A stretch of 64,000 bases of DNA from Bdellovibrionota bacterium. GTDB lineage: Bacteria > Bdellovibrionota_C > UBA2361 > JBIKUX01. Below, in pieces: positions 45,744-54,397 of the stretch. The DNA lies in contig JBIKUX010000009.1 of assembly GCA_044347345.1 (NCBI GenBank), forward strand, positions 27,508 to 91,507. Direction: 5' to 3'. Positions within the stretch are counted from its first letter, which is position 1, and each line of letters begins with the position of its first letter. A program made the position numbers and the translations under genes. Under the pieces are notes generated by a model. The model saw nothing but the letters and a program-made list of their open reading frames with translations. It was not told the origin of the DNA and did no database searches.

Positions 45744-47198
45744 TTAAACTCTTGCTACCAAAGGCTCAGTGGTTGTTTTTTGATTACGTTTTCTGAGTAT
45801 TATTTTAATGCTTGACCCCCTAAAAGGTTTATGTTTGCGAATAATTTTTTCTAAATATCTTTCATAAGAAGGTTTTAAGCGGGCAATAGCATTAACAAAT
45901 AGGACAAACGTTGGTGGCGCACTGTCAACTTGAGTGGCATAAAATAGCTTAATGGGAGTGCCTCGGTAAATAGGAGGAGGGCGTTCAATTAGAGCTCGGT
46001 CAAAAATACGATGAACCACTGACGTTTGCATCCGCTCATGTCTTGTTATAGCTACCTCCTTACTTACCTGTAAAAGTGACGGGCATCGCCGACCCTGCAA
46101 AGCTGAAACAAAAAGAACCGGAGCGTATCTGGCAAATGGCATTACTTTAAATATACTTTCAGTAAAGGCCTGAACAGTTCTATGATCTTTTTCGATAGCA
46201 TCCCATTTATTAACAACTAAAATTAGCCCCTTGCCTCGGTCATGGATAAGTCGCGCAATTTTAGCTTCTTGCTCTGAAGGCATACCTTCTGTAGCATCTA
46301 GTACAACTATTACAACATCTGCCTGTGCAACGGCACAAGTAGTGCGTAATGTACTAAATCTTTCTACTGTACCATCTGCTACGCGCGCTTTTTTTCGGAG
46401 TCCAGCAGTGTCTATAAGGGTATAATTTTGGCCATCTCGGATTAAATCTATATGAATAGAGTCTCTGGTAGTACCCGCTTGTGAAGAAACAACAACGCGA
46501 TTTGCTCCAACAATCCTATTAATCAAACTTGATTTACCAACATTCGGACGGCCTACAAGAGCTACTGTAATCTTATCTAAAGATGCTAAAGATTGACTAT
46601 CAGAAGAATCTTGGGCTTGGTTTTCTGAGGTTTCAGGTAGCTTACTCTCGTCATTATTATCGTAAGATTCCTCCTCCTCTATAGCTAGAAAATCCTCTTC
46701 GTTTTTTATACCCAGCCTACGACGAATAAGCCGCACTAATTCTCGTAATCCTTGCCTGTGCGAAGCGCTTATAATTAAAAGATCCTTTATGCCTAACGCA
46801 TAGAACTCGTTAGCAGCGATATTACTACCAGCTCTCTCCCCCTTATTTACAACAAATAAAGCCGGTTTTTGAGCGCGACGCACAAGCTCTATAACCTCCT
46901 CATCTAAAGGATGAATACCGTGCATACAGTCAAGAACTACAATTAGTAAATCAGAATCAATTACGGCAAGATCGACTTGTTCTCTTATTTTCCAATCTAG
47001 TTCACCATCAATTTCGTCACTAATACCGCCGGTATCTACAACAGCAAAAGGCTCTCCTCCGCGACGCACAGTACCAAAAACTCTATCTCTGGTTACACCC
47101 GGTTCATTCTCAACAATAGCGGATCTTCTATGTACCAAAGCATTAAAGAGTGTAGACTTTCCTACATTCGCTCGACCAACTATAGCTACAGTCTTCAT
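45744..47198 (-). CDS. der: Ribosome biogenesis GTPase Der (EngA)
   Basis: Two GTPase domains: GRANVGKS, GVTRD, DTGG; GRPNVGKS, GTTRD, DTAG, NKWD. Confidence 0.97.
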   Translation of the reverse strand: MKTVAIVGRANVGKSTLFNALVHRRSAIVENEPGVTRDRVFGTVRRGGEPFAVVDTGGISDEIDGELDWKIREQVDLAVIDSDLLIVVLDCMHGIHPLDEEVIELVRRAQKPALFVVNKGERAGSNIAANEFYALGIKDLLIISASHRQGLRELVRLIRRRLGIKNEEDFLAIEEEESYDNNDESKLPETSENQAQDSSDSQSLASLDKITVALVGRPNVGKSSLINRIVGANRVVVSSQAGTTRDSIHIDLIRDGQNYTLIDTAGLRKKARVADGTVERFSTLRTTCAVAQADVVIVVLDATEGMPSEQEAKIARLIHDRGKGLILVVNKWDAIEKDHRTVQAFTESIFKVMPFARYAPVLFVSALQGRRCPSLLQVSKEVAITRHERMQTSVVHRIFDRALIERPPPIYRGTPIKLFYATQVDSAPPTFVLFVNAIARLKPSYERYLEKIIRKHKPFRGSSIKIILRKRNQKTTTEPLVARV

Positions 47199-48088
47199 TT
47201 TTGCTCCTTTACCTTGGTCGTCTTTTTAACTCTCGTGTTATTCTTTATTGTACTTTTCTTTTGCAATCTCTGTTCTTCATCAAATAAACGGGCTAAAGCT
47301 TTTTCAGCTGCTTCCTGCTGAGAACTTTTTTTTGAGGAGCCTTCCCCTCTTCCGTACTCCTGACCATCAATTTTTACCAACGAAACAAATAAAGGCTTAT
47401 GACCTGAACCTTTCGTTTCCTCTAAAAAGTACTCAGGTGCACCACGTTTTAATAAATGAAGTTGCTCTTGTAGCTCAGTTTTAGGATCTCTTGGAGAAAC
47501 AGATACTAGCCGTGTGGCAAAAAGCTTACGAATTACTTGTAAAGCTATATCAAAGCCAGCTTCTACAAAAATAGCTCCTAAGATTGCTTCAAAAACATCG
47601 GCCACAAGAGCCTCTCTAAAAGAGCCTCCCTCTTCTAATTGACTTTTTCCTACAAGAATATGGTGACTAAGCTCTATGCTGCGGCCAACTTCAGCTAAGG
47701 CAGGTGAACTCACTAAAGCAGCACGCAATTTCGTCAATTCTCCTTCAGAGGCAGAAGGATAAGCTTCTGTGAGAAGATAAGCTACTCCAAGGTCAATCAC
47801 TGCGTCACCAAGAAATTCTAATCTTTCGTAGTTACCACTGTTTTTACTTGTAAAACTATTCTTTTCAAGCGAAGCATGAGTTAATGCTCGCTTTAAAAGT
47901 AATTTATCTTTAAATACATATCCTATTCTATCTTCAAGATGACTTATCCCCTCAGAATAATTAGCACCACTATCCTGCTCAGCTTGTCTTTGTAATCGTA
48001 TTTGTGAGCCAGCAATTGATTTCGTAGAGGTCTCATTACCGCAATTGTGTTGGCCTTGAGTGTGAGAAAGACGCTTTGAGGGTAACAT
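47195..48088 (-). CDS. rnc: Ribonuclease III
   Basis: ALTHAS, ERLEFLGDAV, ADVFEA, DPKTELQE, G.G.SKK..QQEAA; N-terminal extension, start uncertain. Confidence 0.96.
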   Translation of the reverse strand: MLPSKRLSHTQGQHNCGNETSTKSIAGSQIRLQRQAEQDSGANYSEGISHLEDRIGYVFKDKLLLKRALTHASLEKNSFTSKNSGNYERLEFLGDAVIDLGVAYLLTEAYPSASEGELTKLRAALVSSPALAEVGRSIELSHHILVGKSQLEEGGSFREALVADVFEAILGAIFVEAGFDIALQVIRKLFATRLVSVSPRDPKTELQEQLHLLKRGAPEYFLEETKGSGHKPLFVSLVKIDGQEYGRGEGSSKKSSQQEAAEKALARLFDEEQRLQKKSTIKNNTRVKKTTKVKEQK

Positions 48089-48140
48089 AGAAACAGAGCT
48101 TTAATGGGGAGATAATATAAAAAAATTTATTTACGTTTAA

Positions 48141-49274
48141 CTAACTGTTAACTACTGATTCCGCTTGATAATAATTACTTCTACTTACAGCTCTTGGATT
48201 ACTTATTCTTCCACCTCCCAAAAGTTCTTCATCTGCAAGGTCATAAAATACTGCTGCTTGACCTGGGGCAACAACAGCAAGCTCGCTTAAAAATGCAACC
48301 CTTAAAGTCGCCTTATCTTCCTGTGATATCCGCGCTGGAACTGCCTTATGCCGATGACGAACCTGAACTAACACATCTGTAGGAGTGGTTATACTTCTCA
48401 CCCAAGATACTTGTTTTACCAAAAAATCCTGACGGTTTAGCTCTATTTTTTCACCGACATAAACCGTAGCTGTTTCAGAATCTATCGCCAGGACGTAAAG
48501 GGGGCTACCATGACCTCCCCCGATGGATAAACCCCTGCGCTGTCCAACAGTAAAACGATGAATACCCTCGTGAGTGCCAATAATTTCACCACTAACCCTT
48601 CTTATTAAACCAGACCTTCCTTGAGCTATTCGTTTTGCTACAAAATCTTGCACCGAACCGGAAACAAAGCAAATATCTTGACTCTCTGCCTTTTCTGCTG
48701 TACTTAGGCCAGCTTCACGAGCTATACCCCTTACCTCTGCTTTTGTCAGGTGACCAACAGGAAATAATGTTGAAGCGAGCTCATGTTGATTCATAGCATA
48801 GAGAAAATATGATTGGTCTTTAGACCTATCTACGCCACGCAGTAACTTATAACCCTCGTGTGAGGCTTCAATTCTTGCGTAATGACCCGTGGCAACGTGT
48901 GAGCAACCCATCGCAGCCGCGCGCTTCCTAAGCTCTTTAAATTTCACGCGGTTATTGCAATCTATACAAGGATTTGGGGTCTCTCCAGCGGCATACGAAT
49001 CAACAAATTTTGAAATTACTTCTTTTTGAAATGATTCTTCAAAATCTACGACATAATACGGAATGCCGGCCTGAGAAGCGGCATTGCGCGCATCCATAAA
49101 ATCCGAAGGTGCGCAACATGTGGCTCGGCTCGAACAACCGCCGCCATTACGATAATCCCACACCTGCATTGATACTCCGATGGCGGGTATTCCACTACGA
49201 CTAATAAGTATTGCCGCTACTGACGAATCAACGCCGCCAGACATAGCTACTACAACTTGTGTTGCTGAATTCAT
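48141..49274 (-). CDS. mnmA: tRNA 2-thiouridine(34) synthase
   Basis: AMSGGVDSS, TPNPCIDCN, ATGHYAR, KDQSYFL, SQDICF, TVGQRRG, PGQAAVFY. Confidence 0.97.
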   Translation of the reverse strand: MNSATQVVVAMSGGVDSSVAAILISRSGIPAIGVSMQVWDYRNGGGCSSRATCCAPSDFMDARNAASQAGIPYYVVDFEESFQKEVISKFVDSYAAGETPNPCIDCNNRVKFKELRKRAAAMGCSHVATGHYARIEASHEGYKLLRGVDRSKDQSYFLYAMNQHELASTLFPVGHLTKAEVRGIAREAGLSTAEKAESQDICFVSGSVQDFVAKRIAQGRSGLIRRVSGEIIGTHEGIHRFTVGQRRGLSIGGGHGSPLYVLAIDSETATVYVGEKIELNRQDFLVKQVSWVRSITTPTDVLVQVRHRHKAVPARISQEDKATLRVAFLSELAVVAPGQAAVFYDLADEELLGGGRISNPRAVSRSNYYQAESVVNS

Positions 49275-49370
49275 TTAGCTCACATAATTAATTTTTAGTA
49301 ATACTATTACTTATGTAGCACATCTATTTTTTTATAAAAATTACACTCAAACGATTGCCTCATAGCTTAT

Positions 49371-50573
49371 TTACTTATGCTGCATACGAGAGGCTAAATC
49401 TCCTATTTTTTTACCGGCTAGGTTCAACATATCTTGAGAATATGTGCTAGCAAAAGAGATACGAACAGTTTCACGGGCAAATTCTTCTGTGTGACCCAAA
49501 GCAAGAAGCACAGTAGATGGGCTTGGCTTTCCCGAGCTACAAGCAGCTCCACCAGAGATCCAAATGCCTTGAAGGTCACAAGCAATAACTAGGTCATCTG
49601 CTCTAACCCCAGCAAATCTTATACTGACTGTATTTGGAACTAAGGGCACATCAGACGAAACAGACTCTTCAAAGATACAGCCAGAAGAGGAAATTCCTTC
49701 AATTAAACTGGCACGTAGCTCCCACATAATCTGTTTGTATCCATCAATTTGAGTAGCCTTTGCTACCTTAGGGGCGATTAACCCGAAAGACAATATCGCC
49801 GTAATATTTTCAGTACCGGCTCTCTTGCCTCCCTCTTGGAATCCTCCCTTAAATAATGGTTTTACATCAATTCCCTTTTTAATAATTAGAACCCCTACTC
49901 CCGCAAGAGAACCAATCTTATGGCCAGATAGAGTAGCAATATCAGCGCCGCTTTCCCTAAAAGACCACGGAATTTTACCAAATGCCTGCACGGCATCGGT
50001 ATGAAAAATAGCTCTAGGGTTTTTCAGTTTCACACTGTTTACTATCTCAGTAATTGGATGAATAATACCGGTTTCGTTGTTGACGCTCATTATGGATACA
50101 AGCTTAGTTCGACTATCAACCAAGTCAGTAACTGATTCTGGGCAAAGGTCACCGGATTTAGATTTACTTGGATGAGCTACTCTAATTTCGTAACCTTTCA
50201 ACCTGCAACTATCCAAGTGAGCTAATACAGAAGCATGTTCAACAGCGCTGACTACTATGTTTTGTGATGAATTCGTCTCCGTTATGTCTCTTTCCGTTAT
50301 GTCTCTTTCCGTGATACCACTTAGTAGAGATAAGAAAACTATCGCGTTACTCTCTGTAGCGCCTGATGTAAAAATAATAGTAGAGTCCTTGGGCGCATCC
50401 ACTGCTCGTGCAATCGCATTTCTTGAGTTTTCAAGTATAGTTTTCGCTCGCTGCCCACCGCCATGAACAGCACTCGCATTTTGGTATAGTGGTAAGTGTT
50501 CAATAAGTTCCTCAAGATGAAAGTGCGAAGCACCAAGAGAAGAGTTAACATCAAGATTTATAGGCTTTAACAT
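49371..50573 (-). CDS. iscS: Cysteine desulfurase (IscS/NifS family)
   Basis: FTSGATESN, VEHASV, NNETG, HTDAVQ, SGHKIG, GTEN, GAACSSG. Confidence 0.9.
   Translation of the reverse strand: MLKPINLDVNSSLGASHFHLEELIEHLPLYQNASAVHGGGQRAKTILENSRNAIARAVDAPKDSTIIFTSGATESNAIVFLSLLSGITERDITERDITETNSSQNIVVSAVEHASVLAHLDSCRLKGYEIRVAHPSKSKSGDLCPESVTDLVDSRTKLVSIMSVNNETGIIHPITEIVNSVKLKNPRAIFHTDAVQAFGKIPWSFRESGADIATLSGHKIGSLAGVGVLIIKKGIDVKPLFKGGFQEGGKRAGTENITAILSFGLIAPKVAKATQIDGYKQIMWELRASLIEGISSSGCIFEESVSSDVPLVPNTVSIRFAGVRADDLVIACDLQGIWISGGAACSSGKPSPSTVLLALGHTEEFARETVRISFASTYSQDMLNLAGKKIGDLASRMQHK
50278..50315. repeat. 15-bp tandem repeat (about 2.5 copies) inside iscS
   Basis: TCCGTTATGTCTCTT x2 plus TCCGTGAT; encodes ITERD-ITERD-ITE. 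Confidence 0.9.
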
Positions 50574-50711
50574 TGGTATTCTCTTTACATTTACTAGCTT
50601 ACAAATAACAAGCTTAAAGATTTTTATTTTTTAGTTTCAGAAATTGCATATTTATACATCTAGCTCGTGTTTAATTTAAATAAACCTATCGATAATTTTT
50701 AAGGTATTAAT

Positions 50712-51161
50712 TTGTTGAAAAAAAACTCTGACATTTCTCCTTCTGACCCCTTGAATATGAAATTCATTAGGCTTTTAAGTGATCAAGGTATCACTGGTAA
50801 AAATCTATTGTATGAACCGTTAAACGAACTTTTTGTTCAGATCAGACAGTCTTTACCAGATAGTTATAATGACTTTAAGAATCTTATCCAAAACAAGCCG
50901 CTTCAATATCATTTCTTATGCTCTGGAATCTCTGACGAAAATATCGAAGATTTAACTTTTGCTCCGGACATTGAGTACATAGTAGTAGTAGTAGTAGATG
51001 ATAGTAGTGGTCAGGCTTCCCTTGGAGTATTTTTTACTTTTACTTCTAGCATCACTAAAATTTATGGTTCTGAAGCACAAATTAGTATTAGGGCTTATTT
51101 TACAGCGAGCAAGACTAATAATACGATTAAGGTTAACTGGACTATCGAGGAGATTAAATAA
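50712..51161 (+). CDS. Hypothetical protein
   Basis: 149-aa ORF, no recognised motif; may start at the internal ATG (MKFIRLL). Confidence 0.5.
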   Translation: MLKKNSDISPSDPLNMKFIRLLSDQGITGKNLLYEPLNELFVQIRQSLPDSYNDFKNLIQNKPLQYHFLCSGISDENIEDLTFAPDIEYIVVVVVDDSSGQASLGVFFTFTSSITKIYGSEAQISIRAYFTASKTNNTIKVNWTIEEIK

Positions 51162-51367
51162 TTAACCAATAAAAAGTTAACAAATGGCATGGTAGTAGAT
51201 TGAGTCGGGTGAAATGCTCAAACTTTAGCTGTTGGAAGCTATGCACTATAGGAATTTAAAGCTGACCGTTTTATTTTTTCATTAATGACCCAAATAAAAA
51301 TTCTTTTTAACCGTTGGGAACGGCAATATTTTTATTCTACAAGATAGTCCCTTTCACGGGCGTTGCA

Positions 51368-51397
51368 TTGACTTCAATTTGTTGGCTCTGTTAGACT
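51368..51397 (+). promoter_or_regulatory. Putative sigma70 promoter driving the repeat array and tRNA-Lys
   Basis: TTGACT-18 bp-TAGACT with extended -10 TGn and GC-rich TCTGCCC downstream, as in stable-RNA promoters. Confidence 0.65.
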
Positions 51398-51432
51398 TCT
51401 GCCCGTTGGCTTTAACCGTGGAAAAGTAGATT

Positions 51433-51947
51433 AGGCCGATAGCTCAGTCGGTAGAGCACTGTGGATGTTTTTAGTTGCTCTACCAACTGAGGTGTTTGTC
51501 AAATACGAATGTTTGACTGAAACGTAAAAATTTGTGGGCCGATAGCTCAGTCGGTAGAGCACTGTGGATGTTTTTAGTTGCTCTACCAACTGAGGTGTTT
51601 GTCAAAAACGAATGTTTGACTGAAACGTAGAAATTTGTGGGCCGATAGCTCAGTCGGTAGAGCACTGTGGATGTTTTTAGTTGCTCTACCAACTGAGGTG
51701 TTTGTCAAAAACGAATGTTTGACTGAAACGTAAAAATTTGTGGGCCGATAGCTCAGTCGGTAGAGCACTGTAGATGTTTTTAGTTGCTCTACCAACTGAG
51801 GTGTTTGTCAAATACGAATGTCTAACTGAAACGTAAAAATTTGTGGGCCGATAGCTCAGTCGGTAGAGCACTGTAGATGTTTTTAGTTGCTCTACCAACT
51901 GAGGTGTTTGTCAAATACGAATGTCTTACTGAAACGTAAAAATTTGT
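51433..51947 (+). repeat. Five tandem 103-bp units, each beginning with the 5' 26 nt of tRNA-Lys
   Basis: Units start at 51433, 51536, 51639, 51742, 51845; the tRNA starts exactly one period later at 51948. Confidence 0.98.
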
Positions 51948-52020
<73 letters not shown>

Positions 52021-52593
52021 AATTTTTAGGAATCAGTTTTTACATACCTGGGGATGTGGTGTTCGAATTTTTTTAGTAGACATCCATCTTTCTAACCTGT
52101 AGGTCACTACCCCTAGGTCACTGCCCCGCAAAAACTAATACAACAGTTAACAAAGCAGATTATTACCCTAACTAATGCTGCCTGCTTAGAATACTGTCAG
52201 CTAATAATGCTGATTGCTAAGTCGTGCAAAAGACAAACTTCAAAAAGTAAATTTGATACGAGAAAAGCCTCCTAACAGTAAATAGGCAGTTATAGCCTAT
52301 AGTGCAGGTGTAAACCGCGAATAAATCAATTAAAAAACTAAAGTTAAAGTAGCTATTACTACTATATTCAAGCCATTTTTATAAATCTTTCCTTAACTTA
52401 CATAGTAAGAATAAATAACAGTGGTAACAGTAACAGTGGCAAAAAATTCCTACCGGCAAATTTTGCCTGTAACATATTGAAATTAAACAAAAAAAGTTAA
52501 AGCTCGCGAGTAATAGATCCGTTATCTAATATGTCACCACCATACTTTTAAAAACGTATGAGTTTAAACTAACTGTTTCAAGGAGGAAACATC

Positions 52594-53454
52594 ATGGCTC
52601 TTACAATTGGAAATAACATTGCGTCCATTCAGGCGCAGCGTAAATTAGGAATCTCAACTCTTGCTCTTGAAGGAGTTTATGAGCGACTAAGTTCAGGACA
52701 ACGCATCAACCGCGCTGCTGATGATGCAGCTGGTCTCGCTATCGCAGATTCTTTAAGAGCCCAGCAACGAGTAGCTACAGTAGCAATTCGGAATGCAAAT
52801 GATGGGATATCAACTGTAGCTATAGCCGATGGTGCTTTATCAGAAATAGGATCAACCCTATCTCGTCTCGCTGAATTATCTGAACAGTCGGCTAACGGCG
52901 TATTTTCTGTTGTTCAGCGTTCCGCTCTTCAAAATGAATTCGTAGCACTTGCCTCAGAAATCGAGCGTATAGCGGTAACTACTACGTTTAACGGTGTTAG
53001 ACTCCTCTCAGGTTCAGGTGATTTCACTCTCCAAGTGGGATTTGACGCAGCCTCAACAGCTCAAATTCAGATTAAAAATGTTCAAGGAACTCTAGCAGCA
53101 TTAGGTTTAGCGGGACCCGGTACTTCAGTCCTTACTTATTCTATTACTGGGACTTCAATTGAGCTAGGCCAATCGGCAGCAAGAGCCTCTCTTGACGCTA
53201 TTAATTCGGCAATTACATCACTTGCCGCAACACGGGGAACACTTGGTGCCGCTGAATCTCGACTAAGAGTAGCAATAAATAACTTATCGGTATCTAGGGA
53301 AAACTTTGCCTCTGCTGAAAGCCGCATTAGAGATGCTGACGTTGCTGCAGATGCTGCTGAGCTAACCAGACTAGGTATCCTGCAACAAGCTGGCTCTGCC
53401 GTCCTTGCACAAGCTAACCAACAACCAAGCATAGCTCTAAGTCTACTAGGTTAA
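52594..53454 (+). CDS. fliC: Flagellin
   Basis: RLSSGQRINRAADDAAGLAIA, NANDGIS, TTFNG, LQVG, AESRIRDADVA, LAQANQQP; AGGAGG RBS at 52581. Confidence 0.97.
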   Translation: MALTIGNNIASIQAQRKLGISTLALEGVYERLSSGQRINRAADDAAGLAIADSLRAQQRVATVAIRNANDGISTVAIADGALSEIGSTLSRLAELSEQSANGVFSVVQRSALQNEFVALASEIERIAVTTTFNGVRLLSGSGDFTLQVGFDAASTAQIQIKNVQGTLAALGLAGPGTSVLTYSITGTSIELGQSAARASLDAINSAITSLAATRGTLGAAESRLRVAINNLSVSRENFASAESRIRDADVAADAAELTRLGILQQAGSAVLAQANQQPSIALSLLG

Positions 53455-53491
53455 ATAAATAAAAATTTTAATTAATGGATTAATCATGAAA

Positions 53492-54397
53492 CTAGCAAAG
53501 GCGTTGGAGGTCTTCGCGACTCTCCACCGCTAATATATTTATCCCAAAAGACTGAGCAGCTTGAACTACCTGATGAGGTTCAAAAATTAAAGTGGTATTC
53601 GCTCGGACAAGAAGGGTATTTAATTTAGCGGCCGACATCATATTGAGCGTAGCTACTCCTATCGAGGGCAAATCAAGACGTAGATCCTGTTGGGGTTTAG
53701 ATAATTTAACCACTACTCCACCAGCACCGCTCGATAATAAACCTGCTCTCTTAATAGCTGAATCTGTTCCCTCCACTGCCTCTAAAGCGATAACCACCCC
53801 ACGAGAAACGACCACCGTTTGCCCAATATCAAGAAGCCCGAGTGCTTCTGCAGCATCCCAACCAATTAAGAGGTCATTACGGTCGGAGACTGAAATTGGA
53901 CTATAGCTAACCAACAAACCACTCGGAATTAACCATTTTTGAAGCACCAGAGACGCAGAAATAATCTTAATACCTGCATCTTCAAACTCACTTGCTACGC
54001 CTCTGAGTAAAGAATCATCATGAAGTGATTTGATACGTTTAATGATCCTAAGAGCCCGCCAATCAAGAGCAAGAGGTCTTTTTTTTTCACTCCAAAAACG
54101 ATTAAGTAAAGGGATAGCATCAACCACTCCCACTCTCTTAATACCACCCAAAAATGCGGCGGTCTTGACTCCATTACTTCGAAAAAACTTAACAATTTTA
54201 TCAACTTGTCCAAGATAAACCCAGACGATACTAGCAGCCATAGTACTAATGCTTGGATCAGTTTCACCAATATGAGCAGCTACTACAACCTTAAAGCCTT
54301 GCCGCTTAGCCTCTTCAATAAACGCTAAAGGAAAATTACCATTACCGGCAATTAACCCTAGGGTCTTGTTATCAGCCGGAGAAATTATCCCATTCAC
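53492..54397 (-). CDS. lpxI: UDP-2,3-diacylglucosamine diphosphatase LpxI
   Basis: GLIAGNG.FP, DIGQTVVV, ALEAVEGTD, KPQQDLRLDLPSIG; follows lpxA. Confidence 0.93.
   Translation of the reverse strand: MNGIISPADNKTLGLIAGNGNFPLAFIEEAKRQGFKVVVAAHIGETDPSISTMAASIVWVYLGQVDKIVKFFRSNGVKTAAFLGGIKRVGVVDAIPLLNRFWSEKKRPLALDWRALRIIKRIKSLHDDSLLRGVASEFEDAGIKIISASLVLQKWLIPSGLLVSYSPISVSDRNDLLIGWDAAEALGLLDIGQTVVVSRGVVIALEAVEGTDSAIKRAGLLSSGAGGVVVKLSKPQQDLRLDLPSIGVATLNMMSAAKLNTLLVRANTTLIFEPHQVVQAAQSFGINILAVESREDLQRLC

Follow-up and report, generated by a model that had tools for sequence, protein, structure and literature searches.

Tandem units with sense and antisense copies of tRNA sequence precede the tRNA-Lys(UUU) gene of a Bdellovibrionota bacterium

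Introduction

The tRNA fragments found at integrase sites are usually 3' ends that lie downstream of the gene, with kilobases of element and an integrase in between, and the ToxI repeats of ~36 nt precede a toxin ORF that processes them. The rtT repeats, for which Rfam includes a family, reportedly lie downstream of the tRNA and carry the tRNA 3' end, without an antisense arm. These repeats belong to the tyrT operon of E. coli and are the nearest named case that we found (Bosl and Kersten, 1991, as cited in a passage of PMC2965389). At the level of mutation, template switching is described in PMC8794818 as creating and maintaining RNA hairpins. A full-text search of the literature returned no description of the unit reported here.

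The common view of tRNA leaders is that they are short and unremarkable; here, the sole tRNA-Lys gene found sits behind up to five hairpins derived from the tRNA itself. The window, i.e., the whole stretch of 64,000 nucleotides that was analysed, comes from a Bdellovibrionota bacterium (assembly GCA_044347345.1, contig JBIKUX010000009.1, positions 27,508 to 91,507). Its genome, referred to as G000 (assembly of 2.53 Mb in 68 contigs, 95.8% complete), was compared with its relatives in the order, represented by 91 genomes among which G000 is the sole member of family f1. Here, we describe the architecture, distribution, and possible origin and role of the array, and compare it with the known systems.

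Architecture of the array

The array lies between a sigma-70-like promoter and the gene for tRNA-Lys(UUU), which it abuts directly. Throughout, S denotes the sense tRNA segment of a unit and AS its 19-nt antisense arm. The features of the locus are as follows:

51368..51397, + strand: sigma-70-like promoter, TTGACT-18 nt-TAGACT with TG (consensus scan), ~35 nt upstream of unit 1
51433..51947, + strand: tandem array of five 103-bp units, starting at 51433, 51536, 51639, 51742, and 51845 (TRF, covariance model R1)
51433..51458, + strand: S of unit 1, sense copy of tRNA-Lys nt 1-26, with G1 replaced by A in unit 1 only
51459..51472, + strand: U-rich loop of unit 1, CTGTGGATGTTTTT
51473..51491, + strand: AS of unit 1, antisense copy of tRNA-Lys nt 29-11
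51492..51535, + strand: spacer of unit 1, 44 nt
51948..52020, + strand: tRNA-Lys(UUU) gene (ARAGORN; Rfam tRNA, 74.4 bits)

TRF scored the tandem array at 5.2 copies with 98% matches and a period of 103 bp, and the covariance model R1 gives all five units of G000 85-87 bits. Each of the five units opens with S (tRNA nt 1-26), which is followed by a U-rich stretch of 14 nt, AS, and a spacer of 44 nt. The start of the spacer (~10 nt, unit 1) is a degenerate complement of tRNA nt 1-9, with a small hairpin next to it in the predicted fold, and its final bases form the 5' leader of the following S or of the tRNA. Five copies of the 19-mer AGTTGCTCTACCAACTGAG are present on the + strand (51473-51491, 51576-51594, 51679-51697, 51782-51800, and 51885-51903), against a chance expectation of 0 in 100 dinucleotide-preserving shuffles of the window, and its complement is tRNA-Lys nt 11-29 (51958-51976) with one mismatch. 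This pattern match confirmed the preliminary description of the locus, in which a 19-nt arm identical in the five units was held to be antisense to tRNA nt 11-29 with one difference.

In every unit, an inverted repeat of 16 nt (51443-51458 vs. AS in unit 1) is 94% complementary over copies lying 17 nt apart, and in unit 1 it lengthens to 29 nt at 76%. S and AS are predicted to form a helix of 18-19 bp that contains one mismatch and one bulge, and a single unit folds with an MFE of -37.5 kcal/mol (z = -5.4), a stability reached by none of 200 shuffles. Both the inverted-repeat search and the fold support the earlier proposal that the arm and the sense fragment form a long hairpin around a U-rich loop. 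It had also been pointed out that the arm matches tRNA nt 27-29 where the sense copy departs after nt 26, which holds with one refinement: past nt 26 the sense copy reads CTG, and the MFE structure keeps ACU paired to AGU by bulging out one U, so that the divergence can be read as a one-base deletion.

The tRNA at 51948-52020 is a member of Rfam RF00005, with a score of 74.4 bits (gathering score, 29), and the repeat units are not called as tRNA. Between 49000 and 54000, no Rfam 15 family for the unit was found at E <= 1; the other matches in this region were Plastid-ycf2 on the reverse strand of the tRNA (31.7 bits, cut-off 65.7) and OxyS (21.7 bits, cut-off 75). Whole units are 98% identical and do not carry the unique spacers of a CRISPR. 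The last 19 nt of the leader (51928-51946) and the first 19 nt past the tRNA (52019-52037) are 84% complementary, which could lengthen the acceptor stem in the precursor, and a T-run is seen by eye 3' of tRNA-Lys in G000 and its relatives.

Genomic neighbourhood, transcription, and assembly support

The genes just upstream of the tRNA-Lys locus are oriented on the opposite strand:

45744-50573, - strand: Der, RNase III, MnmA, and class-V aminotransferase (cysteine-desulfurase-like)
47195-48088: RNase III gene (rnc), 3.3 kb from the array

According to Pfam, the 10 neighbouring ORFs encode these four proteins, one protein without a Pfam match, flagellin, LpxI, an LpxA-like acyltransferase, a FabA/FabZ-like dehydratase, and an OmpH/Skp-like protein; a homologue of RNase E/G is encoded elsewhere in the G000 genome. 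MnmA is the enzyme that thiolates U34 of tRNA-Lys(UUU). As a candidate partner gene it was rejected, since it is located on other contigs in all three carriers of the array where it was found (G005, G031, and G062), and the upstream ORFs of G000 and the metagenome contig L078 are unrelated (E = 11). Neighbourhoods differ between carriers, and no partner gene indicates a function. On the downstream side come the tRNA, then 570 bp in which no ORF reaches 60 aa, and then the flagellin gene, which is not the layout of a type III toxin-antitoxin system. A 149-aa ORF at 50712-51161 (+ strand) with a valine run has no Pfam match, and an RNA contig lies over 50735-50925.

Pairs of -35 and -10 elements similar to those of the G000 promoter are seen by eye before the arrays of G074, G075, G062, G076, and the metagenome contig L074. 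Inside the units, no promoter was found by consensus scan and by eye, and a scan for intrinsic terminators or attenuators found none there; the U-run is located in the loop and not 3' of a stem. RNA contigs were available from two metatranscriptome runs of one study, for which strand and ends are not given and DNA carry-over is possible. Two of these (51738-51870 and 51792-51924) span the junction of units 4 and 5, another (51944-52158) consists of the tRNA and its trailer, and the flagellin gene is also covered. The unrepeated intergenic regions 51035-51436 and 52174-52508 are without an RNA contig, yet have even coverage in DNA runs. The pattern hints weakly at joint transcription of the array and the tRNA.

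Contigs of single runs break at the array, and the arrays of G075, G088, and the metagenome contig L076 are situated at contig ends, as might be expected if the array were a collapsed or chimeric repeat created during assembly. We consider this hardly credible: point variants order the units, the unitig depths in the independent DNA run X1 (15-51 vs. 21.5 in the flanks) correspond to one to ~2.4 copies per variant segment and fit the five assembled units, and the architecture recurs in eight genomes and five metagenome contigs. In practical terms, such arrays break short-read assemblies at tRNA genes.

Source of the antisense arm

ARAGORN finds 39 tRNAs in the G000 assembly, with tRNA-Lys(UUU) as the sole tRNA-Lys. 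The preliminary description had left room for a different tRNA as the source of the arm and proposed to look for a perfect match among all tRNAs of the genome. This search gave no perfect match to AGTTGCTCTACCAACTGAG among the 39; the closest is the adjacent tRNA-Lys with one mismatch, followed by tRNA-Thr(UGU), tRNA-Asn, and tRNA-Val(UAC) with two each. In G075, L074, and unit 1 of G074, AS is perfectly complementary to nt 11-29 of the tRNA-Lys of the same record, and because the arm is perfect in these arrays, the T-for-C difference in the G000 arm is best read as one later substitution. A different tRNA was therefore rejected as the source, with tRNA-Lys itself nearest and the arms of related arrays perfect for their own tRNA-Lys.

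The associated proposal that the arm, taken from some other tRNA whose D-loop reads AGTTGG, targets mature tRNAs in trans as an antisense RNA is in our opinion very improbable. The 16-nt core of the arm does complement the D-arm (nt 11-26) of tRNA-Asn and tRNA-Val(UAC) of G000 perfectly, and the tRNA-Val of the related genome G001 has a unit of like kind of its own. However, both mismatches to tRNA-Asn and tRNA-Val lie in nt 27-29, where the arm fits tRNA-Lys, and the perfect arms of G075, L074, and G074 point to tRNA-Lys as well. Furthermore, an equimolar S is made with every AS and would pair with it first, and the D-arm of a folded, modified tRNA is generally poorly accessible.

Simple tandem duplication was said to be incapable of creating the inversion in the unit, a statement that is supported here, and a template switch explains what tandem duplication cannot. 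AS has the features of a template-switch product in that it is the complement of nt 11-29 and begins 14-17 nt past S, the event itself being unobservable. In every case AS terminates at nt 11, and the base after it is a purine, not the C that would complement G10. This common end with a purine next to it argues for a single origin of the unit.

Distribution among relatives

The strict S-loop-AS pattern occurs in five of the 91 genomes of the order, with 0 matches for the reversed control, and in none of 33 genomes from the other orders of the class. A pattern for the S fragment (an S copy without a real anticodon stem after it) matches 10 of the 91, including G021, where the match is only its tRNA. 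The covariance model R1, which was built from 13 units and used with a threshold of E <= 0.001, matches nine of the 91 genomes, eight with tRNA-Lys arrays and one with a tRNA-Val unit. The tRNA-Lys carriers, seven besides G000, belong to families f1, f6, f8, and f20, and include four of the 35 genomes of genus g8. Their units are 82-136 bp long and vary in copy number from 1 to 5:

G000, family f1: 5 units
G005, family f6: 2 units
G062, family f8: 1 unit
G074, family f8: 3 units
G075, family f8: at least 4 units, split across two contig ends
G076, family f8: 1 unit
G031, family f20: 1 unit, with a larger loop
G088, family f20: at least 3 units

In a metagenome scan, five of six stretches proved to be true arrays before tRNA-Lys. 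The contigs L074 and L078 have one array sequence in common and L076 and L079 another, while L077 resembles the units of G088. Among 185,579 species genomes, the pattern scan picked out 27 stretches, four of them true (L049, L051, L064, and L070) and all four from the lineage of G000. The other 23 were discarded: 16 minus-strand tRNA-Phe genes, one tRNA-Phe-like fragment, three truncated tRNA-like sequences, and three palindromes at contig ends. The last of these (L061, L068, and L073) are perfect palindromes of a tRNA 5' half folded about the anticodon loop, in unrelated MAGs, and are probably foldback chimeras of library preparation or assembly. Within the order, a looser D-arm foldback pattern gave noise equal to its reversed control, and six candidates from it (four on both strands, two with a T-run) were all judged chance, without a nearby tRNA. 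Within the G000 genome, BLAST and R1 find no unit besides those at the tRNA-Lys locus, and the unit is therefore not an interspersed repeat of the REP, MITE, or Ssn type.

The arm is thus kept at homologous loci, the lack of which would have spoken against the preliminary description. Since carriers make up only eight of the 91 genomes, and four of 35 within genus g8, the element is easily lost, and most relatives manage without it. Several other arrangements were seen near tRNA-Lys genes. In G008 (family f9), AS is absent and the acceptor part of an S copy pairs with another segment downstream; G038 may, by eye, have a decayed AS without S; and in L010 (G010) and L076, both on the reverse strand upstream of tRNA-Lys, S is split at nt 12/13 by an insert of ~30-50 nt, without an antisense arm. 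In G031, a tandem array of ~180-bp units (L017:1-780) lies immediately downstream of tRNA-Lys.

Units at other tRNA genes

A unit of 99 nt precedes the tRNA-Val(UAC) gene of G001 (L099:1467-1565, - strand) and is built like the tRNA-Lys unit, with S (nt 1-26) followed by a U-rich loop and a D-arm in antisense; immediately upstream of it, a stretch is masked (N). At tRNA-Pro(GGG) of G000, an upstream unit of 158 nt contains tRNA-Pro nt 1-35, two hairpins, one of them tipped GCGAAGC, and an 11-nt complement of the anticodon stem-loop. This array is split over two contig ends (G000:C7:1-330, L083, and G000:C37:1-103, L088), and homologous units are present in five relatives (G003, G016, G050, G088, and G090). 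RNAalifold on six tRNA-Pro units predicts 32 pairs, 10 of which have compensatory changes, and no Rfam family was found for these units. Two further repeats lie downstream of tRNA genes. In G000 (C51, ~46300-47054, L084), a tandem partial duplication of ~115 nt lies 3' of tRNA-Asn(GUU) and repeats the last ~22 nt of the tRNA and ~40 nt of downstream sequence, and in G016 (L085:470-700), repeats of 170 nt downstream of tRNA-Pro contain a piece of the D- and anticodon arms, the two-hairpin insert of the tRNA-Pro unit, and the T-arm and acceptor 3' end with CCA.

It is conceivable, and in our estimate unlikely, that the Lys, Val, and Pro units form a class of self-referential tRNA-gene leaders, in which AS would pair either with the decoy 5' half or with the nascent or mature tRNA proper, and so couple the transcription, folding, or RNase III/P processing of a single-copy tRNA to its own pool, with copy number as a fast-evolving dial.

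The units may also be regarded as scars of mobile DNA, with S as displaced attachment-site fragments from an element that enters the 5' half of the tRNA and rebuilds it, or as part of a small hairpin element cut by a site-specific nuclease, and with the array as the result of repeated insertions. This is improbable, even though the end of S is fixed at tRNA nt 25/26 in all tRNA-Lys carriers and the G001 tRNA-Val unit, the similar loop of the latter and the GGTA after its arm suggest a cassette that moved between near-identical D-arms, and the S copies of G010 and L076 are interrupted by an insert. The 103-bp units have no recombinase nearby, and no integrase, transposase, or nuclease was found among the 10 ORFs scanned with Pfam around the array; together with the absence of other copies in the genome and of a neighbour gene common to the carriers, this makes such an origin less likely. 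The size of 82-136 bp is also far below that of an autonomous element, integrase scars are generally 3' fragments on the downstream side, and AS copies the tRNA itself instead of foreign DNA.

Conservation and covariation of the units

Over 10 lineages (45 pairs), mean pairwise identity is 0.99 for S, 0.89 for AS, 0.65 for the loop, and 0.49 for the spacer. S tracks the resident tRNA, as illustrated by C7, which is present in the tRNA of G005 and in both G005 units. The main helix is 95% paired, compared to 30-44% for the whole structure in controls with slid 3' partners, and in the extension helix (~10 nt after AS vs. nt 1-9) 68% of cells pair, again compared to 30-44% with 3' partners slid. 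No pair of the helix has changed on both sides, 12 of 18 pairs are invariant, and shuffles match the observed alignment. With S tied to the tRNA sequence, such an absence of covariation would be expected. AS variants occur opposite tRNA nt 16, 17, 20, and 21, and five of the six kinds of variants break a pair. With zero covariation and variants that break pairs, the conservation of AS shows constraint or conversion and is no proof of selection on RNA structure. In G000, G005, G074, and G075, AS still matches tRNA nt 27-29, though the sense copies differ there.

A U-run in the loop is common to all 10 tRNA-Lys lineages, in G031 within a much larger loop, and to the G001 tRNA-Val unit. The U-rich loop was considered as a relic of a CUUUUAA anticodon loop and has the same length as tRNA nt 27-43 (17 nt), with identity at only seven of the 17 positions; the idea is weakened further by the similar U-run in the unit of tRNA-Val(UAC). 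The leader of G076 as an inverted copy of the promoter-proximal leader was judged to be chance, since G062 and G074 have direct repeats there instead.

A possible explanation, and a strong rival to a function, is that the units are a neutral or slightly selfish by-product that serves no purpose: a template-switch quasi-palindrome beside a highly transcribed gene, in which slippage grows and shrinks the arrays and repeated switching keeps AS complementary. The helix without covariation, the AS variants that mostly break a pair, the patchy spread over eight of 91 genomes and four of 35 in one genus, and the lack of a conserved neighbouring gene are all consistent with this. Partial tandem duplications at three of the 39 tRNAs of G000 (Lys, Pro, and Asn) suggest a mutational habit, the possible decayed AS of G038 would fit, and template switching can maintain stems without selection, as set out in PMC8794818. 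However, the 26-nt identity of S and the tRNA allows clean deletion of units, and unselected persistence across four GTDB families, with spacers that cannot be aligned, would be unexpected. Correction templated by S would also erase the match of AS to nt 27-29 seen in G000, G005, G074, and G075, and the tRNA-Pro units of the order do have compensatory changes.

Possible competition with the cloverleaf

The arm of unit 5, which lies directly before the tRNA, had been suggested to pair in cis with the real tRNA, and the prediction agrees: in the MFE structure of unit 5 plus tRNA, the arm binds the 5' half of the tRNA at 14 of the 15 nt of nt 11-25, and the decoy S binds the acceptor 3' strand. 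This structure has -73.7 kcal/mol, compared to -69.2 kcal/mol for the hairpin and a separately folded tRNA. Whether such pairing competes with the cloverleaf was to be judged by the same fold. The outcome differed between lineages: tRNA nt 11-25 are paired with the unit in six of 10 lineages and not in the other four (the lineage G088/L077, which has no complete last unit, was omitted). The energy differences of 3.5-9.5 kcal/mol are within the range that tRNA tertiary structure could offset, and RNAfold missed the cloverleaf for most of the tRNAs alone. As S and AS are able to pair during transcription before the tRNA exists, and as the predictions are ambiguous, competition between the arm and the cloverleaf is possible only.

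Proposed origin and role

With moderate confidence, we propose that the arm forms half of a tRNA-Lys(UUU) leader element that is conserved and lineage-specific, originated by a template switch, was amplified by crossing-over, forms a hairpin-rich pre-tRNA leader, and may be kept for a role in cis. The unit would have been born once, when a snap-back template switch during replication copied the 5' half of the tRNA in reverse. Units would then be multiplied, deleted, and homogenised as the S copies and the 5' part of the tRNA undergo unequal crossing-over or slippage. From the upstream promoter, the array may be transcribed as one long pre-tRNA leader, in which each S would pair with its own AS once this is made and form the imperfect hairpin of 18-19 bp. 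The tRNA would be freed by RNase P, and the leader is probably dismantled by RNase III or RNase E, both of which are encoded.

The weakest step in this proposal is that the element would be kept because the pairing of S and AS matters in cis. If unmasked, AS could invade the nascent tRNA at its D-arm and anticodon stem, and S could compete for the acceptor 3' strand; the number of units may set how much correctly folded pre-tRNA-Lys is obtained. The comparison of genomes favours some benefit of the units in cis, because they persist over four families despite the ease of clean deletion and because AS retains its match to nt 27-29 where the sense copies differ. Such a benefit would most plausibly be the mutual masking of S and AS and a control of leader processing or tRNA yield. 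Hairpins that act in cis would represent an undescribed control of how one tRNA is folded or supplied; without such action, the locus is a clean natural case of template switching and unequal crossing-over that build and maintain a structured RNA array.

Comparison with known systems

The tRNA-Lys array is similar to several known systems in single aspects. Like the T-box leaders, the unit is a leader RNA with complementarity to a tRNA; it differs in that it is without a specifier or antiterminator and in that it complements the D-arm and not, as T-boxes do, the anticodon and acceptor end, and no T-box match was found by the Rfam search of 49000-54000. The ToxI RNAs of type III toxin-antitoxin systems are short structured repeats in tandem ahead of a gene, as in the array, whereas the gene that follows the Lys units is a tRNA and there is no ToxN-like ORF. 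Integrase-site fragments resemble the units as partial direct repeats beside an intact tRNA gene, while the Lys fragments are 5' ends spaced 82-136 bp apart, without an element and with an inverted copy.

The rtT repeats are reportedly tandem repeats in a tRNA transcription unit that bear a piece of the tRNA and are released as by-product RNA, in which they are like the tRNA-Lys units. In contrast, they lie downstream with a 3' fragment, and the Lys units lie upstream with a 5' fragment and an antisense arm. Template-switch, or quasi-palindrome, mutations as presented in PMC8794818 have in common with the units a reverse-complement copy beside its source and a perfect or near-perfect stem made in one event. 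Template switching is a mutational mechanism, whereas the Lys unit is a product, derived from the 5' half of a tRNA, that was amplified in tandem and kept at one locus across families.
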